Positions 5 to 52,101 of a stretch of DNA of 64,000 bases are shown piece after piece. The DNA comes from Alphaproteobacteria bacterium (GTDB lineage: Bacteria > Pseudomonadota > Alphaproteobacteria > Rs-D84), in contig JAWPOG010000045.1 of NCBI GenBank assembly GCA_033345155.1, forward strand, positions 5,795-69,794, given 5' to 3'. Numbering within the stretch: the stretch's first letter is position 1; the number at the start of each line of letters is the position of its first letter. The notes below the pieces were generated by a model that did not search any database, was not told the origin of the DNA, and worked only from the letters and a program-made list of their open reading frames with translations. The position numbers and the translations under genes are program-made.

Positions 5-1993
5 ATGGCAAAAAAATATTTAATTACATCTGCATTACCATACGTGAACAATAATTTACATATTGGTCATTTGATTGGTTGTTTGCTGCCAAGTGATGTT
101 TATGCACGTTTTTGTCGTGCAATGGGGCGTGATGTGTTGGTTGTGGCGGGGTCTGACGAACATGGTACCGCCAGTGAAATTGGTGCGTACAAAGAAAATA
201 TGCCTGTGGAAGATTATGTTGAAAAATATCGTGCGTATCAGTTGCAATCTGTCAAAGATTTTAATTTGTCTTTTGATTTATACGGTCGCACACACACAAA
301 AACACATGAAAAATTGATTCAAAGTTTATTCTTGCGCCTGCAAGAACAAGGTATGCTGGTTGAAAAAGTATCCATGCAACCATATTCCGTCAAAGAAGAA
401 AAATTCTTGGCGGACAGATTTGTTATCGGTACTTGTCCAAAGTGTGGATATGATCACGCATACGGAAACGAATGCGACAAATGTTTTGCGAGCTTGGAAC
501 CAGCACAATTGATAAATCCACACAGTGCTGTTGTACCAGATTCACCTGTGGAAATGCGTGAAACAAAGCACTTGTACTTTAAATACAGCGAAATGCAAGA
601 CGCATTACGCAAATGGATTGATTCACGTGTGGGATGGTCTAAAACTGCGTTAGCGATTGCGAATAAATGGCTGGACGAAGGGTTGCATGATGGCCCAATC
701 ACACGTGACTTAAAATGGGGAATTCCTGTCAACAAGCCTGGTTATGAAAACAAGGTTTTTTATGTATGGTTTGACGCACCGTGGGGTTATGTTTCAATTT
801 CACAAGACGCAAATAAAAACTGGGCAGATTGGTGGCATGGTGGTGATGATGTTCACTATGCTCAATTTATGGCCAAGGATAATGTGTCTTTCCATTCTAT
901 ATTCTTTCCTGCCCAAGAATTGGCGATGAACGACAACTGGAAAACAGTTGATACATTAAAAGGTTTTAATTTCTTAAACTTTGAAGGCGGCAAGGTTTCT
1001 AAATCAACAGGAAATGGGATTTTCTTGAATGAAGCGATTACAATTGCGCCGGCGGACACATGGCGTTATGCGCTGTTGGCCAGTGCGCCTGAAACAGACG
1101 ATACAGACTTTACTGTTTCCCGTTTTGCAGAAATTGTAAACAAGGATCTGAACGGTATGTTGGGAAATTTTGTCAGCCGTGTATGTAAACTGACCCAGAA
1201 AAATTTTGGAAACAATGTACCAAAATCTGGCGGCAAAAATTCAGGACTGGAATCACAAATAAATGAAAAAATATCAGAATTGACAAGTGCACTGGATGCA
1301 TGCGAATTCCGCAAATCTATTGCGGCACTGCGTGGGCTGTACGCAATTGGAAACGAATATATGACTAAAATGGAACCATGGGCGTTGGTAAAAAATGGTG
1401 AAACGGAAAAAGCAGGTGCGGTATTAAACGAATGTTTTCAGATGATTGATTTGTTTGCGCGTGTGTCTGCGCCATTTATCCCAGACGCGGCTGAAAAAAT
1501 GAAAAATATTTTCAAGTCCACACATGATTTGTCATGGCCAAAATCATACGAACATCGCATAGATGATGGCGCAGAATTCATTGTTCCTGAAAACTTGTTC
1601 AATCGCATTGATGATGAAACTGTCACAATGCTGGTTGAAAAATATACGGCAAAAAAAGAGGACATTTCTCCAAAACCAATTATCGCAGAAATTGTCGCCC
1701 TAGAAAATCATCCAACACGTGAAGATTTGCATGTGTTAAATGTAAATTATGGTGGTGATAAAAATGTACAGATTGTATGCGGAGCACCAAATGTACGCGT
1801 TGGTCTGCGTGGCGTATTGGCACCGGTTGGGGCAAAGTTACCAACATCAAAAAAACCAATGGCACAAAGAACGGTTGCGGGTGTTGAATCATTCGGTATG
1901 ATGTGCAGCGCACCGGAACTGGGGCTGTCTGGGGACGGTAAAAATATTATTGAATTGGGTGACGAATATAAAATCGGCGAAGAATATAAATAA
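5..1993 (+). CDS. metG: Methionyl-tRNA synthetase with C-terminal tRNA-binding (EMAP/Trbp111-like) domain
   Basis: 662-aa ORF. N-terminal class I HIGH motif (PYVNNNLHIGHLIG), KMSKS-like (KVSKS), and C-terminal ...VAGVESFGMMCS tRNA-binding domain. Confidence 0.95.
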   Translation: MAKKYLITSALPYVNNNLHIGHLIGCLLPSDVYARFCRAMGRDVLVVAGSDEHGTASEIGAYKENMPVEDYVEKYRAYQLQSVKDFNLSFDLYGRTHTKTHEKLIQSLFLRLQEQGMLVEKVSMQPYSVKEEKFLADRFVIGTCPKCGYDHAYGNECDKCFASLEPAQLINPHSAVVPDSPVEMRETKHLYFKYSEMQDALRKWIDSRVGWSKTALAIANKWLDEGLHDGPITRDLKWGIPVNKPGYENKVFYVWFDAPWGYVSISQDANKNWADWWHGGDDVHYAQFMAKDNVSFHSIFFPAQELAMNDNWKTVDTLKGFNFLNFEGGKVSKSTGNGIFLNEAITIAPADTWRYALLASAPETDDTDFTVSRFAEIVNKDLNGMLGNFVSRVCKLTQKNFGNNVPKSGGKNSGLESQINEKISELTSALDACEFRKSIAALRGLYAIGNEYMTKMEPWALVKNGETEKAGAVLNECFQMIDLFARVSAPFIPDAAEKMKNIFKSTHDLSWPKSYEHRIDDGAEFIVPENLFNRIDDETVTMLVEKYTAKKEDISPKPIIAEIVALENHPTREDLHVLNVNYGGDKNVQIVCGAPNVRVGLRGVLAPVGAKLPTSKKPMAQRTVAGVESFGMMCSAPELGLSGDGKNIIELGDEYKIGEEYK

Positions 1994-1994
1994 T

Positions 1995-3041
1995 ATGTCA
2001 GATATGCGTGTTGTTTTATTGTCTTGTTGCGCGCCATGTTCGTCGGGTGCAATAAAACAATTGGCAGAACATAAAATAGACGGCGTGTCTGACTTTATTG
2101 TTTTGTTTTACAATCCAAATATTTTTCCAGAATCTGAATATACAAAACGTATGAACGAGCAAATAAAGTACTGTGAACAGTTGGGTGTAAAATATGCTGT
2201 TCTGGAATATGACCATGACGCATGGCGTGATGCCGTTCGTGGGTTTGAGAACGCACCCGAACGCGGGGCGCGTTGCAGTCTGTGTTTTGAATACAGATTT
2301 CGTCGCGCGGAAAAATTTGCACGTGAAAACGGTTATAACGCGATTGCATCTGTATTGGGTGTGTCGCGTCATAAAAGTCAAACTCAGGTTGATAACGCCG
2401 CACAAAATGTTTTAAGACAAGATGTAAACGCAAAAAATTATCACGCAAAAAGATATACAAATAGGGCGTTGGCACAATCAAAATATCTTAAAAAAAATAT
2501 GACAGAGGCCGAGCGCTTATTATGGCATTATTTACGTGCAAGAAAGGATTTTTCTTTTAGAAAGCAAGCGCCGATTGGAAATTATGTTGTTGATTTTTTG
2601 TGTGTTAAAAAGAAACTAGTGATAGAATTGGATGCTGCACAACACGGCGATAAAGATAATTTTTTGCATGATATAGAACGGGACGCGTATTTAGAAAAGA
2701 ATGGTTATCGTGTTTTAAGATTTTGGAATGACGAGGTTTGTCGAGATATAAAAAAAGTGTTGAATACAATTGATGTGTTTGTGAACGACAATTGTTCAAG
2801 CCACCCCCTGTCGTCACAGTGTGTGCCGACATCCCCCGCCAAGGGCGGTGGAAATTTTATTGGCGGCCTTTCAGAATGCCCACCGCCCTTGGCGGGGGGT
2901 GGCCACGACAGTGGTCGGGGGGTGGCTGTTGAATATATGCCAATTAAATGGGATGAAAATTTACGCATTCAGATAAATCGTGCGTCAGACTTTTATCGTC
3001 AGAATTATTGTGGCTGTGAATTCAGTATCAGAAAGATATAA
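1995..3041 (+). CDS. queH: Epoxyqueuosine reductase QueH (DUF208) interrupted in-frame by a DUF559 endonuclease-like domain and a palindromic element
   Basis: ATG at 1995 (MSDMRVVLLSCCAPCS = QueH CCxPC motif). C-terminus ...FYRQNYCGCEFS is the QueH C-terminal Cys motif. The central segment KYLKKNMTEAERLLWHYLR...PIGNYVVDFLC...LVIELDAAQH...GYRVLRFWNDEV is a complete DUF559/Vsr-like domain. The ORF tool started 45 nt upstream at 1950. Confidence 0.8.
   Translation: MSDMRVVLLSCCAPCSSGAIKQLAEHKIDGVSDFIVLFYNPNIFPESEYTKRMNEQIKYCEQLGVKYAVLEYDHDAWRDAVRGFENAPERGARCSLCFEYRFRRAEKFARENGYNAIASVLGVSRHKSQTQVDNAAQNVLRQDVNAKNYHAKRYTNRALAQSKYLKKNMTEAERLLWHYLRARKDFSFRKQAPIGNYVVDFLCVKKKLVIELDAAQHGDKDNFLHDIERDAYLEKNGYRVLRFWNDEVCRDIKKVLNTIDVFVNDNCSSHPLSSQCVPTSPAKGGGNFIGGLSECPPPLAGGGHDSGRGVAVEYMPIKWDENLRIQINRASDFYRQNYCGCEFSIRKI
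2801..2925. repeat. About 125-bp imperfect palindromic element (RPE/MITE-like) lying in-frame inside queH
   Basis: Left arm ccaccccctgtcgtcacagtgtgtgccgacatcccccgccaagggcggtgg; right arm ccaccgcccttggcggggggtggccacgacagtggtcggggggtgg. The reverse complement of the right arm ends in the identical cccccgccaagggcggtgg. GC-rich relative to the rest of the gene. Confidence 0.7.
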
Positions 3042-3678: not shown

Positions 3679-4554
3679 ATGTCATCAATTTTTGTATTCC
3701 CAGGTCAAGGCGCACAAAGCGTCGGTATGGGTAAAGATTTATATGAAAATAACGCTGCCGCACGTGCCGTTTTTGATGAGGTTGATTCTGCACTGGGCGA
3801 AAAGTTATCGGATATCATTTTTAATGGCCCATCCGAAGAATTAACCCTGACCGCAAATGTTCAGCCGGCAATTATGGCGACATCGATTGCGATGTTGCGT
3901 GCCAGTGGTGTATCACTGCCAGAATTTGTCGCGGGTCATTCCCTGGGTGAATATACCGCGCTGTGTGCGGCTGGTGCGTTGTCGGTGGGTGACGCGGCAA
4001 GATTGTTGCGTGTGCGTGGTAATGCGATGCAATCTGCGGCGCCAGCGGGCACAGGTCTGACGGCTGTTGTTATGGGGCTGGATATTGATGTGGTGCGTGA
4101 AATCTGTGCGGCCACAGATTGTGATGTTGCCAACGACAATTGCCCAGGCCAGGTTGTTATTTCTGGGTTAAAAGAAACTGTCGAAAAAACAATGGATTTG
4201 GCAAAGTCTCGTGGGGCCAAACGTGCAATGCCATTGGCGCTGTCTGTTCCGGTTCATTGTCGGGTGCAATCGCCCGCAGCGGATGCGATGCGCGCCGCCC
4301 TGGATTCGGTTGAATTTAACACACCAATTGTACCAATCGTTTTAAATAAAACTTGTGCCCCAACAACCGATATTGATGAAATCAAAGACGCGCTGGTCTA
4401 TCAGATGACGCATGGTGTGCGTTGGCGCGAAAGTGTTTTAAATATGGCAAATTTAGGTGTAACAGAACAAATCGAAGTGGGCCCAGGTTCCGTTTTAACA
4501 GGCCTGTGTTCCCGTATCACAGATAAAATAACCGCTAAGAAATTGGAGATATAA
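3679..4554 (+). CDS. fabD: Malonyl-CoA:ACP transacylase
   Basis: FVFPGQGAQSVGMG and GHSLGEY active-site motifs. 291 aa. Confidence 0.95.
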   Translation: MSSIFVFPGQGAQSVGMGKDLYENNAAARAVFDEVDSALGEKLSDIIFNGPSEELTLTANVQPAIMATSIAMLRASGVSLPEFVAGHSLGEYTALCAAGALSVGDAARLLRVRGNAMQSAAPAGTGLTAVVMGLDIDVVREICAATDCDVANDNCPGQVVISGLKETVEKTMDLAKSRGAKRAMPLALSVPVHCRVQSPAADAMRAALDSVEFNTPIVPIVLNKTCAPTTDIDEIKDALVYQMTHGVRWRESVLNMANLGVTEQIEVGPGSVLTGLCSRITDKITAKKLEI

Positions 4555-4555
4555 G

Positions 4556-5284
4556 ATGTTTGATTTAACAGGCAAAGTTGCTTTGATTACAGGTGCAACT
4601 GGTGGTATCGGTGGTGCGATTGCGCACAAGATGAAACAGGCCGGTGCGACTGTTGTTGTGTCTGGCCGTAATGTCGCAAAAATGGACGCTGAATTTGGTG
4701 ATGAATACATTAAAATTCCATGCGACTTGGCGGCGGACGGCGGTGCGGTTGAATTGGTTATGAACACAATTGAACGGGCGGGCAAAATCGATATTCTGAT
4801 TAACAACGCGGGCATTACACGCGACACCTTGTTAATGCGCATGACCGACGATCAGTTTGACGAAGTTATCAACACCAACCTGCGTTCTTGTTTCAAGATG
4901 TGCCGTGTGGCAATTATGCCCATGATGAAGAATCGCTTTGGTCGTATTATCAACATGGCATCAATCATTGGCGCAATCGGTGGCCCAGGCCAGGCAAACT
5001 ATGCCGCATCCAAGGGTGGCATGATTGCAATGACAAAATCGATTGCGGCCGAGGTTGCATCTCGTGGCATTACCGCCAACGCGATTGCACCGGGTTTTAT
5101 CAAAACACCAATGACAGATGTCTTGCCAGACGAATTAAAAAAATCGTATTTGGCGCAGATTCCAGCAGGCCGTTTTGGCGAACCAGATGATATTGCGAAC
5201 GCATGTGTGTTTCTGGCATCCGACGAAGCGTCGTACATCAACGGCCAAACCCTGCATGTTAACGGGGGAATGGGAAGATTCTAA
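4556..5284 (+). CDS. fabG: 3-oxoacyl-ACP reductase (SDR)
   Basis: TGATGGIGGAIA Rossmann motif and the YxxxK catalytic pattern (YAASK). 242 aa. Begins 2 nt after the fabD stop. Confidence 0.95.
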   Translation: MFDLTGKVALITGATGGIGGAIAHKMKQAGATVVVSGRNVAKMDAEFGDEYIKIPCDLAADGGAVELVMNTIERAGKIDILINNAGITRDTLLMRMTDDQFDEVINTNLRSCFKMCRVAIMPMMKNRFGRIINMASIIGAIGGPGQANYAASKGGMIAMTKSIAAEVASRGITANAIAPGFIKTPMTDVLPDELKKSYLAQIPAGRFGEPDDIANACVFLASDEASYINGQTLHVNGGMGRF

Positions 5285-5466
5285 AACGCAACGCGTTTTA
5301 GAATCAAAATTGCCCTGGCAATTTTAAAGCCACGGATGAGCGGAACGCGAACGCAGTGGCGTGTCATTCCGACGCAGGTCGGAATCCAGGTAAATAGGTT
5401 GCGACGCAGTCGCCCAAAATGATATGTACCATAAGATAAAACGCAACGCGTTTTAGAATCAAAACG
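5281..5466. repeat. Two 29-bp direct copies of a hairpin (ctaaaacgcaacgcgttttagaatcaaaa) flanking a ~125-bp multi-hairpin insert
   Basis: Copies at 5281-5310 and 5437-5466. The insert carries a degenerate gtcattccgacgcaggtcggaatcc repeat at 5363-5387 and several GC hairpins. Confidence 0.75.
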
Positions 5467-5474
5467 AATAAAAA

Positions 5475-7118
5475 ATGAAACATTATGATGTGATTGTTAT
5501 TGGTGGTGGGCATGCAGGGGTTGAAGCCGCATCTGCATCTGCACGTCGTGGTGCGAAAACCCTGTTGATAACAATGGCGGAATCGGATTTAGGCGCATTG
5601 TCTTGTAACCCCAGTATCGGCGGTCCCGGCAAATCCCAGATGGTTGCTGAAATGGATGCGCTGGGCGGTGTTATGCCGCGTGCCGCTGACCGCGCAGGGA
5701 TTCATTGGCGTACATTGAACGCAACACATGGTGCGGCGACGCGCGCCCTGCGTGCGCAAATCGACCGCGATTTATATCATAATGCGATTGTTGGTATTTT
5801 GTCGGAATATAAAAATCTGGATGTCATTTTTGAACCTGTTGAATCTGTGGATTTAGAAAACGCAATCGTTAACAACAAATATCATGCGCGCGCAGTTATC
5901 CTGACAACGGGAACATTTTTAAATGGCACGGTCACGCGTGGCGTGGAAAAAATCCCATCGGGGCGATTGATGGACGACGGCACATACCAAGACGCCGACA
6001 AAAACATATCAAATATTTTAAAGAACGCGGGCTTCAAGATTTTGCGCCTGAAAACAGGCACGCCTGCGCGCATCAAACGCGATTCGATTGATTTTTCTGT
6101 ATGTGAAATTCAGCCCGGCGACACCCCCCACGATTGGTTTTCCGACGGTGATGAAAACAATAATTATGACGCGGTCTGCTATATCACACATACAACCAAA
6201 ATCACGCACCAGATAATTCGTGATAACATAAAAAACGCACCAATGTATAATGGAGACATTACCGGCACTGGCCCGCGCTATTGCCCGAGTTTAGAAGACA
6301 AGGTTATGCGATTTCCAGAACACACATCGCACCATGTCTTCTTGGAACCCGAAGGTTATAACAGTGATTTAATATATCCAAATGGTATATCAACCAGTTT
6401 TGGCAGCGATATCCAAGACATCTGGATTCGCTCAATCCCGGGCTTGGAAAATTGCGAAATTGTGCGCTATGGATACGCGATTGAATACGATGCGATTGAC
6501 GCGCGCGCCCTGAACGATAAATTGCAGGCCAAGGACCGCCCGCACCTGTTTTTTGCAGGTCAAATCAATGGCACATCCGGGTACGAAGAAGCAGCGGCCC
6601 AGGGTCTGGTTGCGGGCGCAAATGCCGCGGCGTATGCATTAAATACAGAACCACTGATTCTGGACCGAACAAATTCAATGATTGGTGTTTTGATTGACGA
6701 CATAACAACATTGGGTGTGGACGAACCGTATCGCATGTTCACATCGCGTGCAGAATATCGTCTGTCATTGCGTTGCGATAATGCGATTGCGCGATTGGGG
6801 AAAATCGGTGTGAAACTGGGGCTGACAACAAATGCGTGGTATGAAAAAATATTCAATTTGAAAAAAGAAATTATTGCCGAAAACGATAAATTCTATGCGG
6901 GCTATATCGCGCGCAATGAACGTGAAATCGCCGCGTATAAACGGGACGCGGCATTAAAGATACCGTCTGATTTTGTGTATTCGGGCCTGCCGGGGCTGAC
7001 AAATGAATTGGTTGAAAAATTAACGGCAACGCGCCCGGAAAACATTGCCGACCTGACGCGCATACCGGGCATGACCCCCGCCGGGATTATGGTGGTGCTG
7101 CGCAAAATCAAGGCATAA
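5475..7118 (+). CDS. mnmG: tRNA uridine-5-carboxymethylaminomethyl modification enzyme MnmG (GidA), short form
   Basis: N-terminal FAD motif YDVIVIGGGHAGVEAA, and PRYCPSLEDKV, FFAGQINGTSGYEEAAAQG. 547 aa, shorter than the typical ~620 aa. Confidence 0.9.
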   Translation: MKHYDVIVIGGGHAGVEAASASARRGAKTLLITMAESDLGALSCNPSIGGPGKSQMVAEMDALGGVMPRAADRAGIHWRTLNATHGAATRALRAQIDRDLYHNAIVGILSEYKNLDVIFEPVESVDLENAIVNNKYHARAVILTTGTFLNGTVTRGVEKIPSGRLMDDGTYQDADKNISNILKNAGFKILRLKTGTPARIKRDSIDFSVCEIQPGDTPHDWFSDGDENNNYDAVCYITHTTKITHQIIRDNIKNAPMYNGDITGTGPRYCPSLEDKVMRFPEHTSHHVFLEPEGYNSDLIYPNGISTSFGSDIQDIWIRSIPGLENCEIVRYGYAIEYDAIDARALNDKLQAKDRPHLFFAGQINGTSGYEEAAAQGLVAGANAAAYALNTEPLILDRTNSMIGVLIDDITTLGVDEPYRMFTSRAEYRLSLRCDNAIARLGKIGVKLGLTTNAWYEKIFNLKKEIIAENDKFYAGYIARNEREIAAYKRDAALKIPSDFVYSGLPGLTNELVEKLTATRPENIADLTRIPGMTPAGIMVVLRKIKA

Positions 7119-7242: not shown

Positions 7243-8097
7243 TTATTCAAACCCCAACAATGTAAACACACCACCGACAGCCAGTATCATCAAAACCCAT
7301 ACAACAATCGGCCCCCATGGGTCGCGGAATAAAAAGCCAACAGTCTTGCCGACAACTTCGGATTCTGCAATCGTTTTTCCCGTATTCTTGGTGCCACGAC
7401 CAATTTTATAAAAAAATCTATCGATTGCGTTTTCTGGAATTTGTTTGTTATTTGTTATAGATTTTTTGATTTGCTTATCCGTATTTAAAACAAGGTCCAA
7501 CATATAAATCCGTTTTAACAATTCTGTTGTTTTTGTTTTATCTTCTTTGTTCTTGTTTTTTGATTTTAGAATTTTTACAAATTCTGATAACGCATCATCA
7601 GAAATTTGTTTTGGTATCGACTGCTTATTTGAATACTTATCACTTTTAACCAATTCGTCATCTGTCATACTGCGCATAAAATCTACAAATAATTTCAACG
7701 TGCGTTCTTGCTTCAATTCAATGCCCGGATGAAATTTTTGCCAACTTTTTGCCAATGTGTATCTAAATATTTTATAAATACTGTCATAATCCGTATCATC
7801 AACATGTGAGAAAATTGTATGATATTTCTCAAATAATTCTCTTACATCAAAATAAAAAGTTTTTTCTCCGGCATTTGTATTAACTCTTAATAAATCAACT
7901 GGCACAACCCTATCTCCAATATTTACTTTAATTAACCGTTGTTCCAATAGCTCAAATTCTGGGTATAATTTAGCGATATATATTTTCTCTTCTTTAACAC
8001 TTGATACTTTTATAAGTGGTTGATTTGGACCAAGTGTATACGTTGTGTTATCTTCTGTTAAATCAATTTTGTTTGTTTTGGGATTAAATGAAACCAT
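7243..8097 (-). CDS. Hypothetical C-tail-anchored protein (284 aa), third gene of a low-GC three-gene operon
   Basis: Long K/E/D-rich soluble region, then a single C-terminal TM helix PIVVWVLMILAVGGVFTLLGF. GC is far below that of flanking genes. No recognisable motif. Confidence 0.6.
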   Translation of the reverse strand: MVSFNPKTNKIDLTEDNTTYTLGPNQPLIKVSSVKEEKIYIAKLYPEFELLEQRLIKVNIGDRVVPVDLLRVNTNAGEKTFYFDVRELFEKYHTIFSHVDDTDYDSIYKIFRYTLAKSWQKFHPGIELKQERTLKLFVDFMRSMTDDELVKSDKYSNKQSIPKQISDDALSEFVKILKSKNKNKEDKTKTTELLKRIYMLDLVLNTDKQIKKSITNNKQIPENAIDRFFYKIGRGTKNTGKTIAESEVVGKTVGFLFRDPWGPIVVWVLMILAVGGVFTLLGFE

Positions 8098-8935: not shown

Positions 8936-8968
8936 TTGTCATTCCCGCGCAGGCGGGAACAGGGTCTT
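8936..8968. repeat. ATTCCC-N8-GGGAAT palindromic repeat copy (ttgtcattcccgcgcaggcgggaacagggtcttgaaaaaattt)
   Basis: Same orientation as the 7178 copy. Inverted partner at 9331. Confidence 0.85.
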
Positions 8969-9001
8969 GAAAAAATTTGTGTGCCCTTGTACAATTTTGA
9001 T

Positions 9002-9331
9002 ATGAAAGATTATCACTTCTGGGTTTATATATTGTTTGATGAACGCGCCAAGGGAACTTATATTGGTGTGACGAATAATCTTGAACGGCGTATGTATGAA
9101 CACAAAATGGGATTAGATGACGGTTATACCAAAGAACATAATATTCATAAATTAGGATATTTTGAATACTACAAATATGTTAATAATGCGATTGCGCGTG
9201 AAAAACAATTAAAGAAATGGAAACGGGCATGGAAATATCGATTGATTGAAACAATGAATCCAAATTGGATTGATTTGGCCGACGATTTAGAGAAAAACAT
9301 AGAGTTTTGGAAAAACAAAGAAACTGTTTAG
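9002..9331 (+). CDS. GIY-YIG nuclease family protein (109 aa)
   Basis: HFWVYILFDERAKGTYIGVTNNLERRMYEH matches the GIY-YIG core (YIL..., YIG, R..EH). The 131-aa ORF-tool call from 8936 begins inside the repeat. ATG at 9002 is the likely start. Confidence 0.85.
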   Translation: MKDYHFWVYILFDERAKGTYIGVTNNLERRMYEHKMGLDDGYTKEHNIHKLGYFEYYKYVNNAIAREKQLKKWKRAWKYRLIETMNPNWIDLADDLEKNIEFWKNKETV

Positions 9332-9488: not shown

Positions 9489-9564
9489 GCCGGTGTAGCT
9501 CAGCTGGTAGAGCATCTCATTCGTAATGAGGGGGTCGTAGGTTCAAGTCCTATCACCGGCACCA
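9489..9564 (+). tRNA. tRNA-Thr (anticodon CGT), CCA encoded
   Basis: Acceptor gccggtg/caccggc, D-arm gctcagctggtagagc, anticodon stem tctca/tgagg, loop ttCGTaa, T-arm gtagg-ttcaagt-cctat, 3' acca. Confidence 0.9.
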
Positions 9565-10434: not shown

Positions 10435-10537
10435 TATTGACTTGCTTTTTAGAAAAATCCATTGTAACCTGTATATTGATGAAACAAACAACAATAATTA
10501 TTATTAAATAAGGCTACACTGCGCTTCGCACGGTGGC

Positions 10538-10562
10538 TGGGGCGCATGGGCGCCTTTTTTTA
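10538..10562 (+). promoter_or_regulatory. Leader hairpin plus T7 (terminator/attenuator-like) 22 nt upstream of the ileS start
   Basis: ggcgcatgggcgcc followed by ttttttt. A promoter-like ttgact lies about 100 nt upstream. There is no room for a promoter between the hairpin and the ATG. Confidence 0.45.
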
Positions 10563-10583
10563 ATACAAAACACAGGAAAAAAC

Positions 10584-13500
10584 ATGACATATAAAAAGAC
10601 CGATGCACGCCCAGATTTTACCGCGCTGGAACAGCAAATGTTGTCAAAATGGGCAAATGAAAACACATTTCATAAATCGTTGGAAAATACTAAATCTGGT
10701 CGTCCATTTTCATTTTATGACGGTCCTCCGTTTGCGAATGGTACACCGCATTGGGGGCATTTGGGTGTATCGGTCGTCAAAGACATGATTGCGCGTTTCC
10801 AGACGATGAATGGACGCTTTGTTCAGCGTGAACTGGGGTGGGATTGTCATGGGCTGCCTGCGGAAAATTCTGTAGAAAAGAAACAGGGCAGGGCAGCCAA
10901 AGATATCGTTGCCAGCGATGGTATTTCGGCATTTTGCGATATGTGTCGCACAGATGTTATGACCTATGCGAACGAGTGGAATCGTTTCATCACTCGCATG
11001 GGGCGCTGGGTTGATATTGGCGATGGATATGGATATAAGACCATGGATAAAAATTATATGGAATCCATGCTGTGGACATTAAAAGAATTGTATAATCGTG
11101 GATTGTTATACAAAGATTACAGTGTAAATCCATTTGACTGGGTCAATGGTACGGTTGTATCGAATTCCGAAGCATCTCAGGACTATCGTGAAATTATTGA
11201 TGATGCGGTGACGGTTTGGTTTGAATTAGAAAATGGCGACCGTGTGATTGCTTGGACAACAACACCATGGACCTTGCCTGCAAATTCTGCGTTGGCGGTA
11301 AATCCAAATATGACATATTTGCGCATGCAGGATGCCGATGGCGCGGTTTATGTTATTGCGCAAAGCCGTCTAAAAGACTATGAAAAACAGTTTGCCAAAG
11401 CAATAGAAATCGGTCATGTATCAGGCGCAGACCTGGCGGGTATGCACTATACTCCACTGTTCCCATATTATGCGGGGGCGTCTGAATTATTATTCCGGAT
11501 TATTCCAGCAGACTATGTATCGGACAGCGACGGTACGGGCATTGTGCATATTGCACCGGCTTATGGCGCAGACGATTTTTGGGCGGCAAAAAATATCGAC
11601 CCAAAATTCCCAGTATTGTTAAATGTTGACAGTTATGGAAATTTTGATGAAACAGTCACAGATTTTGCAGGACAAAATATCTTTGAAGCAACACCTGCGA
11701 TAATGGATTGGTTAAAAACAAACGGTAAATTGGTTAAAAAAGAACAATACAAACATTCGTATCCATTTGGCGATCGCAGCAAAGAAAAATTGATTTATCG
11801 GGCAACCGATTCTTGGTATATCGATGTGCCGAAAATCAAAGATAAATTGTTGGCAAATAATGCAAAGGTAAATTGGACCAGTGCTGGCGAAAGATTCCGC
11901 AGTTGGATTGAAAACGCGCGTCCTTGGTCAATTTCCAGAAATCGTTTCTGGGGCATGCCGTTACCAATCTGGGAACGCGACGGCGAATACAAAGTATTTG
12001 GCTCAATTGCAGAATTGGAAGAATTCTTTGGCGTTGAAATAAACGACCTGCATCGTCCAACATTGGACAAATTGACCAAAGACGGTTGGACGCGTATTCC
12101 AGATGTCTTGGATTGCTGGGTCGAAAGTGGTTCTATGCCATGGGCATCCCTGCATTACCCATTTGAAAATGTTGAACGATTCAATGCAACATTTCCAGCT
12201 GACTATATTATCGAAGGTCAGGATCAAACGCGCGGTTGGTTCTATGCATTGATGGTGTTGGCGACTGCTTTGTTTGACAAGCCAGCTTTTATGGCAGTAT
12301 CAGCAAACGGTATGGTTGTGGACGAACACAAGAAAAAGTTTTCCAAATCACTGCGCAACTTTGTTGATCCGTCGGCACAAATCGAATTGTATGGCGCAGA
12401 TGCTGTGCGCTTGTATATTTTGGGCTCTAATTTTATGAAGGCTGAACCGGTCCCCGTTGACAAAGAAGGCAAGGTCTTTGCTGAATCAACAAAAACAATC
12501 CAGACACCATTGTGGAACGCATATCACTTTTTTACATTGTATGCGAACGCCGGCAATATTACTGCGTATGAAATGACGAATCCGACCAATCCGTTGGATA
12601 AATATATCTTGGCGGAATTGAATATGTTGACCGACATTGTGCGCGCAGCATTGACCGAATATAAACCGGATGTCGCCGTCAAAGAATTTGTACGATTCCT
12701 GGATATTTTGAACAATTGGTACATTCGTCGTGGTCGCGCCCGTTTCTGGGACGAAGAACAGGCTGCGTTTGACACATTATACACAGTGCTGACGCGTTTC
12801 TGTCGCGTATTGGCACCGTTTGCGCCGTTTATATCTGAATATATCTATACGAATCTGACGGGTGCAGAATCTGTGCATCTTACTTCGTTCCCAGAAACGG
12901 TTGCCACCGACACAAAAATTGTGGACGATATGCGTCGTGTACAAATGATTGTGTCAACAGGCAAGCAATTGCGTGAACAGTATAAATTGCGCAACCGTCT
13001 GCCGCTGAATTCTTTGATGGTTGCTGGTGTAAATATGCCCGAATACGCCGATATTATCCAGGACGAATTGAACGTCAAATCGGTTGTGTTCCGTGAAACA
13101 TTTGATGATGTGGCGGATTCTTTTGTGTACCTGATTACGCCAAAAATTGGCGCGCGTCTGGGTGGCGCATTACGGGAAATTATTCCTGCGGTAAAACGTG
13201 GCGATTATGAATTGGTGGGCGATAAATTATTGACTGCTGGCCATGAATTAAACGCGGACGAATTTGAAATGCGCCTGAATATGCGTGACGGTGTGACGGG
13301 CGCGGCGTTGCCAGATAACACCGCGGTTGTCGTTCTGGATACAGATGTTAATTCAGAATTAATTGCCGAAGGATTGGCAAATGATGCCCTGCGCTTTATC
13401 CAGGATACACGCAAGGCAGCAAACTTGGATGTGTCAGACCGCATTGTTTTGACATATTCGGCGGACCCGGCCCTGGCAAACGCGCTGGAAACCCATAAAA

Positions 13501-13607
13501 AGCGCATCATGCACGAAGCGTTGATTGTCAAAATGGTTGCGGGCGACGGCGAGTACGAAACCGAAATCGAGGGCTATAACCTGGCGATTTCTGTAAAACG
13601 GGCATAA
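10584..13607 (+). CDS. ileS: Isoleucyl-tRNA synthetase, type 2 (eukaryote-like)
   Basis: HIGH-type motif PFANGTPHWGHL, KMSKS as KKFSKSL, about 1008 aa. The ORF tool began at 10533, but the ATG at 10584 (MTYKKTD) is the likely start. Confidence 0.95.
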   Translation: MTYKKTDARPDFTALEQQMLSKWANENTFHKSLENTKSGRPFSFYDGPPFANGTPHWGHLGVSVVKDMIARFQTMNGRFVQRELGWDCHGLPAENSVEKKQGRAAKDIVASDGISAFCDMCRTDVMTYANEWNRFITRMGRWVDIGDGYGYKTMDKNYMESMLWTLKELYNRGLLYKDYSVNPFDWVNGTVVSNSEASQDYREIIDDAVTVWFELENGDRVIAWTTTPWTLPANSALAVNPNMTYLRMQDADGAVYVIAQSRLKDYEKQFAKAIEIGHVSGADLAGMHYTPLFPYYAGASELLFRIIPADYVSDSDGTGIVHIAPAYGADDFWAAKNIDPKFPVLLNVDSYGNFDETVTDFAGQNIFEATPAIMDWLKTNGKLVKKEQYKHSYPFGDRSKEKLIYRATDSWYIDVPKIKDKLLANNAKVNWTSAGERFRSWIENARPWSISRNRFWGMPLPIWERDGEYKVFGSIAELEEFFGVEINDLHRPTLDKLTKDGWTRIPDVLDCWVESGSMPWASLHYPFENVERFNATFPADYIIEGQDQTRGWFYALMVLATALFDKPAFMAVSANGMVVDEHKKKFSKSLRNFVDPSAQIELYGADAVRLYILGSNFMKAEPVPVDKEGKVFAESTKTIQTPLWNAYHFFTLYANAGNITAYEMTNPTNPLDKYILAELNMLTDIVRAALTEYKPDVAVKEFVRFLDILNNWYIRRGRARFWDEEQAAFDTLYTVLTRFCRVLAPFAPFISEYIYTNLTGAESVHLTSFPETVATDTKIVDDMRRVQMIVSTGKQLREQYKLRNRLPLNSLMVAGVNMPEYADIIQDELNVKSVVFRETFDDVADSFVYLITPKIGARLGGALREIIPAVKRGDYELVGDKLLTAGHELNADEFEMRLNMRDGVTGAALPDNTAVVVLDTDVNSELIAEGLANDALRFIQDTRKAANLDVSDRIVLTYSADPALANALETHKKRIMHEALIVKMVAGDGEYETEIEGYNLAISVKRA

Positions 13608-13608
13608 T

Positions 13609-14253
13609 ATGTTAACACCGCAAAGATATTTTGAATTGGTTCCCCCGACCATTGACATGACAATTCGGTCGGAACTGTATCATACAAATGAATTTAACTT
13701 TGCGGTGGCGGTGATTCTGTCTGCCCAGGCAACAGATAAAAAAGTAAACGAGGTTACGCCCGCTTTGTTTGCGGTTGCACCAACACCACAGAAAATGTTA
13801 GACCTGGGGGTTGATGGATTAAAAAATCATATCAAAGTGATTTCGTTCTTTAATAACAAGGCAAAAAATATCATCGCGTTGGCCGAACGTTTGGTTGCCG
13901 AAAATATGACAGATACATTTCCAGATAAATATCACAATCGTGATGAATTAATGCGCCTGCCCGGCATTGGACAAAAGACCGCAAATGTTATCTGTAATGT
14001 TTTGTGGCATGCGCCAAATATCGGTGTTGATACACATGTATTCCGTAATGCACACCGATATGGCTGGGTCGATGACGCGGACAATACGCCCGAAAAAGTA
14101 GAAACAAAATTACTGAAAAAAATTCCAAAAAAATATCACCCAATTGTAAATCATGTAATGGTTTTGCACGGTCGCTATGTGTGCAAAGCGCTGAGGCCTG
14201 AATGCAACAAGTGTCCAGTTGCCAGATGGTGTACATATGCCGCCAAAAAATAA
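13609..14253 (+). CDS. nth: Endonuclease III (DNA glycosylase/AP lyase)
   Basis: HhH-GPD motif LPGIGQKTANVI and 4Fe-4S cluster C-x6-C-x2-C-x5-C (CKALRPECNKCPVARWC). Start is 1 nt after the ileS stop. Confidence 0.95.
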   Translation: MLTPQRYFELVPPTIDMTIRSELYHTNEFNFAVAVILSAQATDKKVNEVTPALFAVAPTPQKMLDLGVDGLKNHIKVISFFNNKAKNIIALAERLVAENMTDTFPDKYHNRDELMRLPGIGQKTANVICNVLWHAPNIGVDTHVFRNAHRYGWVDDADNTPEKVETKLLKKIPKKYHPIVNHVMVLHGRYVCKALRPECNKCPVARWCTYAAKK

Positions 14254-14283
14254 TTTACAATAACAATAAAAGGTTAAAAAATA

Positions 14284-14739
14284 ATGACAAAGGAACAAAT
14301 AAAGAATTTTTTTATTAATGATGCTTGCAGCAGATGTAATCTAAGCGAGAAAGATATTTCGCAACAGGAAAACGTCCCCGGTTTTTTCAGAAATGTTATA
14401 GAGGTAGATTCATTAGATATTGTTGAAATATCTTTCTTACTATCATCAGAAATGAAAATTGACATATCAGACGAAGACGTTGATACAATTGCTAATTATT
14501 CACTAAAACAGATTGTTGATTTTATTCATGGTAAATATATTATTGGTAATTCTTCACCCTCGATTACGCCAAATTGTAATAACAGATTTTCTGGCTATCG
14601 TATTGAAAAAAGCGGTTCCCCTTATTGCAAAGTGTTAAAGGAAGCATGCAAACAGCCCGAGCGTTCAAACCACACAATTGAACCGTATTGCTATGTTATC
14701 GGCTGTCCTTTGTATAAATACCTTCAAAAGTCCCGCTAA
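14284..14739 (+). CDS. Acyl carrier protein paralogue with an 8-Cys C-terminal extension (151 aa)
   Basis: VIEVDSLDIVEISFLLSSEMKIDISDEDVDTIANYSLKQIVDFIHG aligns with the ACP phosphopantetheine-site DSLD..ELVM..EEEF motif. About 65 extra residues follow, with NCNN, YCKVLKEAC, YCYVIGC. Markedly lower GC than its neighbours. Confidence 0.65.
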   Translation: MTKEQIKNFFINDACSRCNLSEKDISQQENVPGFFRNVIEVDSLDIVEISFLLSSEMKIDISDEDVDTIANYSLKQIVDFIHGKYIIGNSSPSITPNCNNRFSGYRIEKSGSPYCKVLKEACKQPERSNHTIEPYCYVIGCPLYKYLQKSR

Positions 14740-14747
14740 AAAGATTT

Positions 14748-15188
14748 TTAATCTGTGGCTTTTTGCAACACTGCGGAAAATGTGGATTCTGCGACTTTTT
14801 TACCACCGACCAACGCAATTCCATGAAATTTGTACAAACTCATCTTAGAAGTTAACAGTTCCACATGCAGTTCCAGTTTATCACCAGGGCGCACCATATG
14901 CGAAAATCTAATTTTTTCCATTGTTGTAAAGTACCCCAGTGTACCTTGCCGTTCGTGTTCTGATAATCTGCTGAATGCAACAAAGCACGCGGTTTGGGCC
15001 AATGCCTCGACCTGTAAAACACCCGGCATAATTGGATTGCCTGGAAAATGCCCATCGCACCAAAATTCATCGTCTCGCACATATTTTACACCGACTGCGC
15101 TGGTATCGTTAAATTCACGAATCTCGTCAATCAGTCGCATATTACCCCGATGTGGAATAATCTTTTCGATTTCTTTTGCGTCTATCAT
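14748..15188 (-). CDS. fabZ: 3-hydroxyacyl-ACP dehydratase
   Basis: HFPGNPIMPGVL hot-dog motif. 146 aa. Confidence 0.95.
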   Translation of the reverse strand: MIDAKEIEKIIPHRGNMRLIDEIREFNDTSAVGVKYVRDDEFWCDGHFPGNPIMPGVLQVEALAQTACFVAFSRLSEHERQGTLGYFTTMEKIRFSHMVRPGDKLELHVELLTSKMSLYKFHGIALVGGKKVAESTFSAVLQKATD

Positions 15189-15210: not shown

Positions 15211-16254
15211 TCAGTTTTTCATTTGCTTTTTTAACCACGCATAATGACGCATAAATTCTGTGCCAGGGCCCGCTGGATACCCCATATGTGATTCGCCGTC
15301 CGGAATATTGCGGAAAACGCCACTGTTTGCGCCAACGGACGCGTCGTTCCCAATTTTCACGCCGTTTGCGACCCCAACGTGTCCGCCCAGCAAAGCGCGG
15401 TCACCCACAACAACACCGCCTGCAATACCAACACCACTGGCCAAGAAACATTCGTCACCAATAACAACCCCATGTGCAATCTGGCACAGATTGTCAATTT
15501 TTGTGCCATTACCAATGCGGGTATCTGTCATCGCCCCCCGGTCTATGCATGTATTTGCACCAATTGACACGCGTTCACCGATTACCACGCGTCCAACATG
15601 TGGTATAAATATGTTTTTGTTTCCCTGACGGGTGTATCCAAACCCGTCTTTGCCAATAACTGCATTTGCGTTTATCACGCAATTTGCGCCAATTGTTGCG
15701 TTTTCGATATGTGCGCCACTTTGAACAATTGTTCCGCGCCCCAAAACAACATTTCGTCCGATAAATGCCCCAGGGTAAATTTTTACATCTGGTTCAATTA
15801 CCGCGCCCCGTTCAATTGTTACAAACTGACCAACATAGGTTGTTCTTTTTTTACGAAAGAATACCCCACGTTCAATAAAGGCGTGTTTACTGATGCCAAA
15901 TCGTGGTTTTTCCCGATAGATTTCGCCCAAAATTTTCACAATATTTCCGCGTGGGCTGTCTGTGACCAACAAGGTTGTGCCCTTGGGTGCATGCTTTGCC
16001 AATTCTGGCTGAACCAGAATCACGGTTGCACGTGTATTTTCCAATACAGATATCGGCAAAATTTTGAACGCATTACTGTTTTGTTCAGTCGAATAGAACG
16101 CCAGTTGTCCCGCCCGCGCATCGGCAATTGGTGCAACCCCACGCACAGGTTCATTCGCATTTCCACGCAGTTCCAAACCAAATTTGGCCGCCAACGCACC
16201 GGCTGTTGTTTTACTTGCCGCCGGCATAAACAAAGATCTAATTGCTTTCATCAT
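15211..16254 (-). CDS. lpxD: UDP-3-O-acylglucosamine N-acyltransferase
   Basis: Left-handed beta-helix hexapeptide repeats (IGxxxxIG...) and LpxD N-terminal domain. Likely start MMKAIRS. Confidence 0.9.
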
Positions 16255-16371
16255 AGTGCTTCGATTATAGATAAAAAAAATTCCACATTCCACATTTTTA
16301 TAAAAGTTTATATTTTTACTTGCGTTTTAATAATTACCCTATATAATGTATATTGTTCTTAAATAATAATT

Positions 16372-20596: not shown

Positions 20597-21697
20597 TTAG
20601 CGCTTTGCGTTATTCAGTCGCAACTGTCCGCACGCCGAACCAATATCTGTTCCTCGTTCGCGTCTGATGCGGGTGTGCACCCCGTTCTTTATCAGTGTAT
20701 CTTGGAATCGATGCACCGCATTGCCCGACGGCGATGCAAAGTCGCGTTCATCAACTGCATTCCAAGGAATTAAATTCACCATACAGTTTTTACCGTGCAA
20801 CAGTTCAGATAATTTTTCCGCATGTTCTGGTGTCGCATTATACAGCACTGTTTCACCATTTTCATCTTTCTTGCCTAACAAGATATATTCAATCATTAAC
20901 TGTCGATTGTGGTTATCTGTGAAACGCCATGCTGCATTCATAACATCGTTTAATTTATATTTATTATTAATCGGCATAATTTGTGACCGCAGTTCATCGG
21001 TTGGCGCATGCAAAGAAATCGCCAGATTTATTGGTCGTCCCCAATCAATCAGCCGTTCAATCCCTGGCACAATCCCACATGTAGATACAGTTATCCGTCG
21101 CCATCCAATCCCCATTTGTGAATTGGCGCGTTCAATAAAGTCAATTACATTTTCTGTGTTTTGTAAAGGCTCGCCCGTACCCATGACAACTATGTGTGAT
21201 ACATCGTCATTATTTGCATCTCCGTTTGGTCGAATCGATTTTTCTGAAAGTTTATCTTTGCGCAGTTCCCATTGTGCCACCAAAATTTGTGAAAAAATTT
21301 CATTTGCTGTCAAATTGCGTTTCAGTCCCAACAAAGTGCTGGCGCAGAATCTGCATCCCATTGCACATCCAGCCTGGGAACTGACACAAACGCTGTTGCC
21401 ATATGTTGTGCGCATAAGAACGCATTCAATCTGCTCGTGGTCATTTAATTCCAGCAAAAACTTGGTTGTTTCACCATCGGCCGAATCCAGTTTTTTTACA
21501 ATTTTTACAGGCAAAGTCTGTGCCATACTTTCCAATTGTTGACGCAAATTTTCTGGCACATTTTTCATAGACGCAAAATCTGGCGCTCCACGATTTAACC
21601 ATTCGCGAATTTGTTTCGCGCGAAACCGAGGTTGCCCCATTTCTGTAACAAACTTTTCCAGTTCTGCATCAGTCAGATTAAATAGGATTGTCTTCAT
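20597..21697 (-). CDS. rlmN: 23S rRNA (A2503-C2)/tRNA methyltransferase RlmN (radical SAM)
   Basis: Radical-SAM CxxxCxxC as SQAGCAMGCRFC, the GTGEPL SAM-binding motif and the conserved C-terminal catalytic Cys in GSDIGSACGQL. 366 aa. Confidence 0.9.
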   Translation of the reverse strand: MKTILFNLTDAELEKFVTEMGQPRFRAKQIREWLNRGAPDFASMKNVPENLRQQLESMAQTLPVKIVKKLDSADGETTKFLLELNDHEQIECVLMRTTYGNSVCVSSQAGCAMGCRFCASTLLGLKRNLTANEIFSQILVAQWELRKDKLSEKSIRPNGDANNDDVSHIVVMGTGEPLQNTENVIDFIERANSQMGIGWRRITVSTCGIVPGIERLIDWGRPINLAISLHAPTDELRSQIMPINNKYKLNDVMNAAWRFTDNHNRQLMIEYILLGKKDENGETVLYNATPEHAEKLSELLHGKNCMVNLIPWNAVDERDFASPSGNAVHRFQDTLIKNGVHTRIRRERGTDIGSACGQLRLNNAKR

Positions 21698-22527
21698 AAT
21701 TTATACCGTTCATCATTGATAACAATAACCGCCTTGCGCCGCAGTTGTTTTAACTGTTGATCGGCCATGAACATCGCCTGTTTATACATGGTGTTTTGCT
21801 TTATCATATTGTCCAGATTTTTATATTCGCTGGTCTTTTTCGTGCCGCACACCAACAACACAGAAGCGTCATCTGCACGTTTCGACCAAGTCAAAATGGG
21901 CAAATTAGCCACGCGTTCACGCATATCTTCGGCCAGTTCATATTGTTTTGCTGTAAATTTTTGTGGCACACCACCAAAAGATTCCGCCATTTTGACTGCA
22001 TCATCACATGATTTCGGTTTTGTTAATTTTTCGGCAATTTCCGATGGAACATCTGTCAGTCGTACAATTGTCATCTCGATTGGTAATCCGTGTTCTTGTG
22101 CTATGTTTGCGCGTTCATTGGCGATATCTTCATCTGTCACATCAACAGTTGGCATAACGGTACGCGCCACAATAATCTGCCATGCGATATCCGCCCGCAG
22201 TGCGTTGCGGGCCATCTCGCGTTCTGTTGCGCTTAAATCATCACCCAGGTTCATTTTTCTAAGTTCTGCATCAACTGTTTTATCGTCTGGGTCAACATTA
22301 AAATTCTTGGCATAAGCTAATTTTACATTGTCATCGATAATATTTTGCAAAGCCACCCGCCGATTATCAGTCGATGTGTGTCCCTGTCGCGCCATCAGTT
22401 TTGTTCGTGCGGTAACATCTGTATCCGTCACAGGTGTCCCATTAACCGATGCCACAACCGTTGCACCAAACACAGGACACGCAAACATCGTGCACAATGC
22501 TACAAAAACATTTTTTACCAAATTCAT
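21694..22527 (-). CDS. SurA N-terminal-domain-like periplasmic chaperone (no obvious PPIase domain)
   Basis: Signal peptide. Sits directly downstream of lptD, as surA does in many proteobacteria. Start overlaps the rlmN region by 4 nt. Confidence 0.55.
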   Translation of the reverse strand: MNLVKNVFVALCTMFACPVFGATVVASVNGTPVTDTDVTARTKLMARQGHTSTDNRRVALQNIIDDNVKLAYAKNFNVDPDDKTVDAELRKMNLGDDLSATEREMARNALRADIAWQIIVARTVMPTVDVTDEDIANERANIAQEHGLPIEMTIVRLTDVPSEIAEKLTKPKSCDDAVKMAESFGGVPQKFTAKQYELAEDMRERVANLPILTWSKRADDASVLLVCGTKKTSEYKNLDNMIKQNTMYKQAMFMADQQLKQLRRKAVIVINDERYKL

Positions 22528-29780: not shown

Positions 29781-30184
29781 CACTATTGTATTTCTCTTTC
29801 TGCTCTTAAAAACTATAATTCTCCCCAATCCCCAGTCCCACGGCCACACCAAATGCCCCAGGTCCCCATGTCCAGTGCTTTGTGCAGCAAAGATTCCAAT
29901 ACTGTTGCGTGTATTTGGTGCGAACATTGGGTTTGCGTATGTTGTCAGTGGCGATATAATCAGGCAAAAACATCAGTACGTGTTTCATGTGAAAAATTAT
30001 GCCACTTAAATGCCCGCATATCTATTTGATAAAAATCTTAAATATAGCATAAAACACATGACTAAACTATTTACAGAGCGCCAAAAAATTGATATAATCA
30101 CAATAAACATACATGCGTTGTGCATGGTGTTTGTGTATAGAAAGGTTGGGTTTCTGGGTTGTCCAGAACACAAGGAGAGTTTTT

Positions 30185-33442: not shown

Positions 33443-34165
33443 CTAGATTGCGCGCGCCACACGACAAAATGTTACGCCGTAAACAGCTGTTGCGCCCGCC
33501 TGAATCAGCACTCGTCTCAGTTCGGAAAATGTTGCGCCAGTTGTCATAACATCATCGACCAGTAAAATCCGTTTACCTCGAATTTTATCAGGCCTGGTAA
33601 CCCAGAAGCATCCACGAATATTTTCTGCGCGTTCGCGTGCATTTTTATGTCCCATATCATCACGATATTTACGATGAACTGAATCCAAATCCATTTTTAT
33701 ACCTGTGGCCTTGGCGATTGGTCGTGCCAATAATGTGGCCTGGTTGTATCCACGTTTGAACAGCCTGCGATTTGCCAAAGGCACCGGCATAATAACATCT
33801 GCGTCTATTTGAATATCGTGCAAAGCCAATATCATTGCACGTGCCATAAAACGCGCATAGCGGATTTTTCCACCATGCTTAAACGGCAACATGGCCGCAC
33901 GTGACGCATCATCATACACGCACGCAGACCGTATCCAGTCCAATTCAGATTTTCCAGCCGCACAAACCGGACACAGTGGCATGCCACCCAAATCCAAATC
34001 TGCTGGGAACGGATATCCGCATTTGACGCATTTTGGGTTGTTAATCCAGTTCAACTTGGTCCAACATGTTGCGCATAATTCGCCGTGTGTTAAAACCGGC
34101 GTATCACACAAAGGACACGCCGGCGGAAATATAAAACTGGTTAAATCAGACAGTATTTTTACCAC
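33443..34165 (-). CDS. comF: ComF/GntX-family phosphoribosyltransferase-domain protein
   Basis: N-terminal Zn-finger CPLCDTP...CATCW...CVKCGYPF and C-terminal PRTase motif ILLVDDVMTTGATFSE. Confidence 0.8.
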   Translation of the reverse strand: MVKILSDLTSFIFPPACPLCDTPVLTHGELCATCWTKLNWINNPKCVKCGYPFPADLDLGGMPLCPVCAAGKSELDWIRSACVYDDASRAAMLPFKHGGKIRYARFMARAMILALHDIQIDADVIMPVPLANRRLFKRGYNQATLLARPIAKATGIKMDLDSVHRKYRDDMGHKNARERAENIRGCFWVTRPDKIRGKRILLVDDVMTTGATFSELRRVLIQAGATAVYGVTFCRVARAI

Positions 34166-52030: not shown

Positions 52031-52101
52031 TTGGCTGGATTTTTTTCGGGGGGGCTAGAAATCGTTTTTATTAGGTTGTGGTTTGTGGTATAATACAACA
52101 T

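Follow-up and report, generated by a model that had tools for sequence, protein, structure and literature searches.

An acyl carrier protein-like fold joined to a conserved four-cysteine mini-domain in a narrow protein family of gut Alphaproteobacteria

Introduction

Besides the housekeeping acyl carrier protein (ACP) AcpP, extra or divergent ACPs specific to particular lineages have been described, among them AcpXL, NodF and RkpF of rhizobia, AcpM of mycobacteria, which also carries a C-terminal extension, and the ACP of anammox bacteria. These specialised ACPs lie in operons with dedicated enzymes and keep their serine strictly, and their extensions are not known to be of the four-cysteine (Cys4) kind. 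Here we describe a small gene at positions 14284-14739 (+ strand) of a 64,000-nucleotide stretch of an alphaproteobacterial contig (GenBank JAWPOG010000045.1; the whole stretch is called the window below), whose 151-residue product joins an N-terminal ACP-like domain to a basic, cysteine-rich C-terminal tail. It resembles the specialised ACPs in being divergent and specific to its lineage; unlike them, it belongs to a family that is found in a variable housekeeping context with no dedicated enzyme linked to it.

This previously unannotated family, which is defined here together with its new and strongly conserved four-cysteine mini-domain, is narrow. It has been found only in metagenome-assembled genomes (MAGs) of gut Alphaproteobacteria, of which those that have been characterised have reduced genomes (Rs-D84 / Candidatus Enterousia). 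Neither the Cys4 domain nor the ACP-Cys4 fusion is described in Pfam, NCBIfam or the Protein Data Bank (PDB). The family also presents the ACP fold in an unusual regime, in which it evolves fast, has repeatedly lost its serine and is dispensable in one lineage.

Results

The reading frame

The open reading frame (ORF) begins with ATG and comprises 151 codons and a stop. An AAGG resembling a ribosome-binding site can be read 10 nt upstream of the start (14270-14273, +), inside the 30-nt gap that follows the upstream gene nth. A Logan contig from an independent sample carries the same ORF at 99.3% nucleotide identity, the only differences being S93L and one synonymous change, and the two-domain layout is kept in orthologues of 26-46% identity. 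Because the independent contig and the orthologues preserve the frame, the ORF is real, and a sequencing artefact that joined two ORFs, a concern raised when the gene was first noticed from sequence alone (the sequence-only reading), is ruled out. A scan for promoters and terminators around the gene gave counts that were not above those in shuffled sequence.

A divergent ACP fold at the N-terminus

Residues 1-88 (14284-14547, +; net charge -8) are a divergent ACP fold in which the position of the ACP serine is kept. With profile models the window protein falls below the curated thresholds, scoring 15.8 bits against a cut-off of 20.8 for the Pfam PP-binding family PF00550 and 29.5 bits (E = 5e-7) against 70.45 for TIGR00517. 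Ten further family members score 23-46 bits with TIGR00517, all under its cut-off; FabD and FabG of the window exceed their own equivalog cut-offs. A sequence search of the PDB returned 87 matches, all 87 of them ACPs and the top ones including mitochondrial ACPs. Ser43 of the DSLD motif (residues 42-45, 14407-14418; Ser43 codon TCA, 14410-14412) aligns with the phosphopantetheine serine of solved mitochondrial and bacterial ACPs and is the candidate phosphopantetheine site.

An AlphaFold2 (AF2) model of the window protein, built from a 12-sequence family alignment, had a mean predicted local distance difference test score (pLDDT) of 86.5. Over residues 1-88 the pLDDT exceeded 90, with four main helices and two short ones. 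Foldseek matched the model solely to ACPs in the PDB (probability 0.99-1.0, target TM-score 0.6-0.8, rmsd mostly 2.1-3 Å), the top match being the anammox-specific ACP (PDB 7auf). The sequence-only reading had described an 'unmistakable' ACP with a DSLD serine and a cysteine-rich extension. The PDB alignment, the AF2 model and Foldseek agree with this as regards the fold, the serine and the layout, but the sub-threshold scores with PF00550 and TIGR00517 do not agree with the strength of the word.

The ACP domain varies considerably across the family. Helix II reads LLRKKMK in the closest orthologue (cluster P0002), as against ALEEEF in canonical ACP, and the ACP domain of that orthologue has a net charge of +1; in a clade with long linkers, helix II matches E. 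coli AcpP at 60-64% identity along a stretch of 33 residues. The net charge of full-length ACP domains is -2 to -20, apart from two exceptions at +1, and that of the tails is +2 to +9. Within this otherwise fast-drifting domain no motif is better conserved than DSLD, and phosphopantetheinylation is therefore probably real in most members. No phosphopantetheinyl transferase (acpS), acpP, fabF or lpxA gene was seen among the Pfam-annotated large ORFs of the window, and tblastn found no canonical acpP in the window or in about 200 kb of related loci.

An invariant Cys4 mini-domain at the C-terminus

The ACP domain is followed by a linker (residues 89-104, 14548-14595, +) that contains the non-conserved Cys98 and is modelled with low confidence, the pLDDT falling to 59, with residues 97-100 below 50. 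The linker is 16 residues long in the window protein and ranges from 7 to 232 residues across full-length members, the long forms being Q/E/K/P-rich repeats.

The remainder of the protein (residues 105-151, 14596-14736, +) is the basic Cys4 mini-domain. In both family alignments the four cysteines C115 (codon 14626-14628), C122 (14647-14649), C136 (14689-14691) and C141 (14704-14706), together with Tyr144 and the terminal Arg151, are invariant. The cysteines are spaced C-x6-C-x13-C-x4-C, and the Cys4 regular expression matches 86 family sequences. As Cys4 modules require, these four candidate metal ligands are thus invariant across homologues. The tail, of about 47 residues, invariably ends the protein and has the consensus G-x-P-Y-C-K-L-L-G-x-x-C-x-x-P-x-x-x-N-x-T-x-K-P-Y-C-E-F-I-x-C-x-L-Y-K-N-F-Q-K-L-R. 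Most members end in C-x-LYKNFQKLR; the ending of the window protein is C-P-LYKYLQKSR. In total the window protein has seven cysteines (positions 15, 18, 98, 115, 122, 136 and 141), five of them in the extension that follows the ACP domain; the eight-cysteine tail initially reported was a miscount, and the motifs listed with it, the N-terminal CSRC included, also sum to seven. The cysteines of the CSRC and NCNN motifs are not conserved across the family.

In the AF2 model the tail consists of a β-hairpin (residues 106-115) and two helices (135-138 and 142-150), with mean pLDDT values of 75-88 over 10-residue blocks, and the cysteines are placed at the end of the hairpin, in a loop and at the helix starts. 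A PDB profile search with the tail returned nothing. Pfam gave no match to the tail at E values up to 10, Complex1_LYR included, which speaks against the LYR-motif family or any other Pfam family for it. We also considered an origin from the Fe-S loop of nth, on account of a local YxCKxLxxxC resemblance, and rejected it on an hhalign probability of 0.5%. A phage or defence origin was likewise rejected: PADLOC yielded no significant match, the PHROGs matches were to ACP families and confined to the N-terminal domain, and a scan of viral contigs gave nothing.

Family membership

A word-index search recovered a near-identical copy alone. Exhaustive phmmer searching of 1.84 billion representatives gave 16 hits, of which 13 are true relatives. 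Nine of the 13 are 147-164 residues long and align over most or all of the query (the near-identical P0001 among them), three are 217-315 residues long and have two matching stretches, the best of which is the last 45 or so residues, and one, of 64 residues, is tail-only. Profile searching then extended the family to about 90 clusters (at 90% identity) that share the architecture. The few named ones are 'hypothetical proteins' from Alphaproteobacteria MAGs, so that the unusual character attributed to this architecture holds: there is no Pfam model for it, and the sources, where they label the protein, label it hypothetical.

A search for other architectures with a tail-only profile returned two short family members and nothing else, and in JGI metagenomes no family locus was found beyond the contig already known. 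One cluster, P0093, had been considered as the canonical ACP of the lineage and was rejected; it resembles P0094, a canonical ACP labelled by its source as from Acidobacteria, and is uninformative for the lineage. No ACP-Cys4 or ACP-zinc-ribbon fusion was noted in the titles and abstracts of the matching papers listed, and the mSphere paper on Rs-D84 does not mention an acyl carrier protein.

One locus (L022) carries two paralogues on the same contig. The first (7250-7732 of that contig) is a 160-residue copy without the serine that follows alaS. The second (10839-11609) is a 256-residue long-linker copy that follows an RNase J gene and has weak matches to PP-binding and PF25533; by analogy with other long-linker members it probably keeps the DSLD serine.

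The Cys4 tail evolves more slowly than the ACP domain

Comparison of the window with its Candidatus Enterousia relatives gives an identity of 91% for FabG, 88% for Nth, 83-85% for IleS, 81-83% for FabD, 76-84% for MnmG and 75-81% for MetG. In the same comparison the family protein is 26-46% identical over its whole length, 29-47% in the ACP domain and 37-55% in the tail. Its dN (Nei-Gojobori) is 0.38-0.51, as against 0.05-0.11 for nth and ileS in the same genome pairs, and it thus evolves 5-8 times faster in dN than these two genes. The two parts of the protein differ in turn. Between loci L015 and L016, for which nth and ileS have a dS of about 0.95 and a dN of about 0.05, dN is 0.53 in the ACP domain and 0.13 in the tail, and omega is about 0.55 in the ACP domain, 0.14 in the tail and 0.05 in nth, so that change in the tail is slower than in the ACP domain by a factor of about four. 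The tail alignment has a mean column identity of 59%, the full-length alignment one of 34%.

The ACP serine, although retained in most members, has been lost at least three times and possibly five. The losses are found in the GAGV/ILS clade, in P0005 (LKKQD), in P0084 (LDDLD) and in the single clusters P0064 (DYLD) and P0081 (DFWE). In one further lineage the ACP domain is missing altogether: P0012 (locus L025, 1760-1954) is a 64-residue tail-only gene that starts 3 nt after mnmG and has a strong terminator hairpin downstream, and since the preceding mnmG is full-length and the terminator follows, it is not a truncation artefact. The slower evolution of the Cys4 mini-domain, its survival of the serine losses and its existence as a stand-alone 64-residue gene together argue that it is the conserved functional core of the family.

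The family gene is low in GC (33.8%, with a GC3 of 29.6%) compared with the window (43.2%) and the neighbouring genes (41-49%), as was observed at the outset. Such a deficit, of 2.5-10 points under the own locus, is seen in all 11 of the family genes checked, that of the window included. Being family-wide, the low GC is therefore no trace of recent transfer, and as the gene is also syntenic with nth in relatives, horizontal acquisition is rejected; the 'foreign-looking' character that had been proposed for the gene is not supported.

Host and genomic context

A scan of GTDB species genomes located orthologues in an Alphaproteobacteria MAG from sheep rectum and in two MAGs of Candidatus Enterousia sp. 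The window comes from a close relative of Enterousia, since its housekeeping proteins are 75-91% identical to those of the Enterousia relatives. Candidatus Enterousia belongs to the order Rs-D84, a group of farm-animal gut bacteria whose genomes are mostly below 1 Mbp; they lack respiration, can make very little for themselves and are thought to rely on partner organisms (PMC12306168). That the family gene is kept in such small genomes implies that it is in use; its retention, and sometimes its duplication, in partner-dependent hosts suggest that it is likely to matter to their biology.

In the window the family gene lies directly downstream of, and in the same direction as, nth (13609-14253, +; endonuclease III, Pfam HhH-GPD). 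Downstream it converges on fabZ (14748-15188, −; Pfam FabA), beyond which lies lpxD (15211-16293, −; Pfam LpxD and Hexapep); the stop codons of the family gene and fabZ are 8 nt apart, and the coordinates and convergent arrangement given in the sequence-only reading are confirmed. On the upstream side, nth directly precedes the family gene on the same strand, with gaps of 10-30 nt, in the window, in L002 (whose orthologue is 46% identical) and in the Enterousia loci, and it is immediately upstream of the family gene in L002, L005, L006 and L015-L017, so that the closest orthologues share this linkage. Small co-directional gaps to the upstream gene recur among orthologues. On the downstream side, fabZ is present only in the window species (the window and L001); L002 has a different gene there and Enterousia has mreB. 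The fabZ-lpxD adjacency is absent from L002, L005, L007, L009, L010, L012, L015-L018, L019-L022 and L025, and neither fabZ nor lpxD occurs anywhere in the available loci of L002, L005, L015, L016 and L018. Companion genes of the AcpXL type (dedicated fabF or fabZ paralogues, or lpxXL) were not found near the family gene.

Elsewhere the gene sits in other housekeeping surroundings. It directly follows mnmG in three other lineages, lies between efflux genes and pheT in one lineage, and follows alaS or an RNase J gene in the long-linker clade. The order in L018 is fabD-fabG-mnmG-(a 115-residue ORF)-family gene-ileS-x-nth. The pair fabD-fabG is followed by mnmG, and not by acpP-fabF, in the window (3679-7118), in L016 (18011-20441) and in L018 (6171-9419). 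In the window, an insert of 128 bp separates the stop of fabG from the start of mnmG and is bracketed by a perfect 27-bp direct repeat, AAAACGCAACGCGTTTTAGAATCAAAA, at 5283-5309 and 5438-5464 (0 expected by chance); fabG and mnmG abut in L016 and L018, and the insert has the look of a small insertion in which a target containing a hairpin was duplicated.

Other features of the window

The isoleucyl-tRNA synthetase (10533-13607) scores 589 bits on a MupA-type model and is, we presume, of the type-2 (eukaryote-like) class. A 363-residue ORF at 1950-3041 fuses QueH (residues 22-171) to a DUF559/restriction-endonuclease-like domain (174-277); the QueH proteins of relatives are only 179-180 residues long. 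The window has a single tRNA gene, tRNA-Thr(CGU) (9489-9564), and next to it lies a GIY-YIG nuclease-domain protein of 131 residues (8936-9331). At 59084-61342 lies a VirD4/TraG-type coupling protein of a type IV secretion system (T4SS), and the ORFs that flank it (61404-62249, −, and 62286-63218, +) have no Pfam match. Sizeable ORFs of up to 754 residues without a Pfam match are also found at 7243-8097, 21694-22527, 30113-32377, 34159-35442, 52078-53064 and elsewhere, and presumably encode lineage-specific proteins of a reduced-genome bacterium.

Discussion

A proposed tethered metal-binding module

The explanation that we prefer, with an even balance of confidence and doubt, is that the family protein combines a binding module, stabilised by a metal, with an acidic ACP-like domain that is tethered to it as an accessory. 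Support for this explanation is good in its descriptive part and weak in its mechanistic part. For a small basic domain with four invariant cysteines, the simplest reading is a structural metal site. The cysteines would most likely hold a structural metal, with zinc as the default guess and an Fe-S cluster as a possibility in these anaerobes, and the Cys4 site so formed would make the tail a small binding module for a partner. The ACP-like domain would serve this module as a tethered accessory and, in the window copy with its intact DSLD, is probably phosphopantetheinylated. It may present a prosthetic or acyl group near the Cys4 target, or its acidic face may mask the basic module. The metal-binding regulator that was offered as one of two possible roles in the sequence-only reading is, judged in this way, plausible.

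Several observations weigh against this explanation. The tail lacks the CxxC knuckles of a classical zinc ribbon and has no recognisable fold match. When it is modelled alone its pLDDT is 54, compared with 76-88 together with the ACP domain, and Foldseek with the lone tail finds no match; the higher confidence in the full-length model hints, weakly, that the tail may pack onto the ACP domain. Carrier function appears likely in most members, including the window protein, and could be central rather than accessory. Finally, mnmG occupies the usual slot of acpP after fabG, and in several lineages the family gene follows mnmG; the family could therefore descend from acpP itself.

Alternative explanations

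Closest to this last point is the proposal that the family protein is the lineage's own housekeeping AcpP, which has drifted under genome reduction and gained a C-terminal extension. The lack of a canonical acpP by tblastn in the window and some 200 kb of related loci, the order fabD-fabG-mnmG and then the family gene in several lineages, the small size of the genomes (below 1 Mbp; PMC12306168) and the resemblance of helix II of the long-linker clade (60-64% identity) to that of E. coli AcpP are all consistent with it. However, its dN is 5-8 times that of nth and ileS even though FabD and FabG, with which it would have to work, are 81-91% identical, the acidic patch of helix II has become RKK in the closest orthologue, members without the serine or without the whole ACP domain exist, and all of the tested members score far under the equivalog cut-off for AcpP, unlike FabD and FabG, which exceed their own. 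On account of this fast evolution, the helix II changes, the Ser-less and tail-only forms and the sub-threshold TIGR00517 scores, a role as the housekeeping ACP of fatty acid synthesis (FAS) in these cells appears unlikely. The identity of the FAS carrier in these reduced genomes needs checking, since acpP does not follow fabD-fabG in the window or in two relatives.

It is also improbable, in our view, that the Cys4 domain is Fe-S-binding or redox-active and links Fe-S or redox metabolism to the ACP or its acyl state. In mitochondria, and likewise in E. coli, ACP is associated with the cysteine desulfurase complex, and such a role would suit the four invariant cysteines in a cytoplasm that is strictly anaerobic, the adjacency in the window lineage to nth, which encodes a [4Fe-4S] enzyme, and the presence of mitochondrial ACPs among the top sequence hits. 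Against it, the hhalign comparison with the Fe-S loop of endonuclease III was negative (probability 0.5%), the linkage to nth is not family-wide, and to our knowledge the cysteine spacing fits no Fe-S motif.

We give similarly little credence to an interaction or effector protein that evolves fast and is directed at a partner or a host cell, such as a type IV secretion substrate, with the basic C-terminal module as its recognition signal. The rapid protein evolution (omega of about 0.4-0.55), the conserved positive domain at the extreme C-terminus with its invariant Arg end, the long repeat linkers of some members, the VirD4-type coupling protein of the window (59084-61342) and the presumed dependence of the hosts on partners (PMC12306168) would all fit such a protein. 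Yet no signal peptide was noted on inspection by eye, folded metal-binding domains are atypical as secretion signals, and the gene context is one of housekeeping genes rather than of T4SS genes.

Less probable again is a self-contained ACP switch, in a relative of the mitochondrial lineage, in which the Cys4 module would dock onto the ACP domain or be released from it according to acylation or redox state and would then bind its target. Such a protein would be a bacterial, fused counterpart of the mitochondrial ACP that controls small partners, and the Ser-less and tail-only forms would be constitutive.

The other role proposed in the sequence-only reading was that of a dedicated acyl carrier that feeds the acyltransferases of lipid A synthesis (LpxD, or a substitute for LpxA) in the manner of AcpXL, and this too we hold to be quite unlikely. 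The DSLD serine is intact, the gene converges on fabZ-lpxD in this species, and lpxA is not within the 64-kb window. But the fabZ-lpxD adjacency is absent from the available loci of all other lineages, and with the link confined to a single species, and no co-transcription of convergent genes, the proposal has no comparative support; nor are AcpXL-type companion genes found nearby. A dedicated carrier as the function that defines the family is at odds with the repeated serine loss (at least three times) and with the tail-only form of one lineage. By these comparisons the protein would not be a lipid-A-dedicated carrier, and a tempting link to lipid A synthesis is removed as unsupported. Lastly, a precursor of a ribosomally synthesised Cys-rich peptide (RiPP), with the ACP-like domain as a large leader, is very improbable: the conserved Cys-rich segment of about 45 residues at the C-terminus and the stand-alone form of 64 residues would suit it, but none of about 15 distinct loci has a maturase, radical SAM enzyme, protease or dedicated exporter next to the family gene, the 'core' is more conserved than the 'leader', which is the reverse of the usual pattern, and the genomes are below 1 Mbp and lack most biosynthesis (PMC12306168).

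Comparison with known systems

The family protein can be set beside three more known systems. The N-terminal domain is most like AcpP (PF00550, TIGR00517), with which it shares the helical bundle, the DSLD at the N-terminus of helix II, the aligned serine and an acidic surface, and also similar patterns in helices I and IV (SLKQIVDFI in the window protein, TVQAAIDYI in E. coli). It is unlike AcpP in that the window protein scores below the cut-off, evolves fast and carries an extension of 63 residues made up of the linker and the Cys4 domain, and in that members of the family can lose the serine or the whole ACP domain.

The tail differs from zinc ribbons and treble clefs in its C-x6-C...C-x4-C pattern, which is not CxxC, and in having no match in Pfam, in PDB sequences or by confident fold comparison. 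It is like them in having four invariant cysteines in two pairs and in being small and basic; in the predicted structure, too, a β-hairpin supplies the region of the first cysteine and the start of a helix the last.

The combination of the two domains differs from the pairing of mitochondrial ACP with LYR proteins in that the tail is not a three-helix LYR bundle and has no Complex1_LYR hit in Pfam at E values up to 10. The likeness is one of idea only: in both cases an ACP of the alphaproteobacterial lineage is combined with a small basic partner that contains an L-Y-K...F segment, and the tail of the window protein is modelled with higher confidence in the company of its ACP domain than alone.

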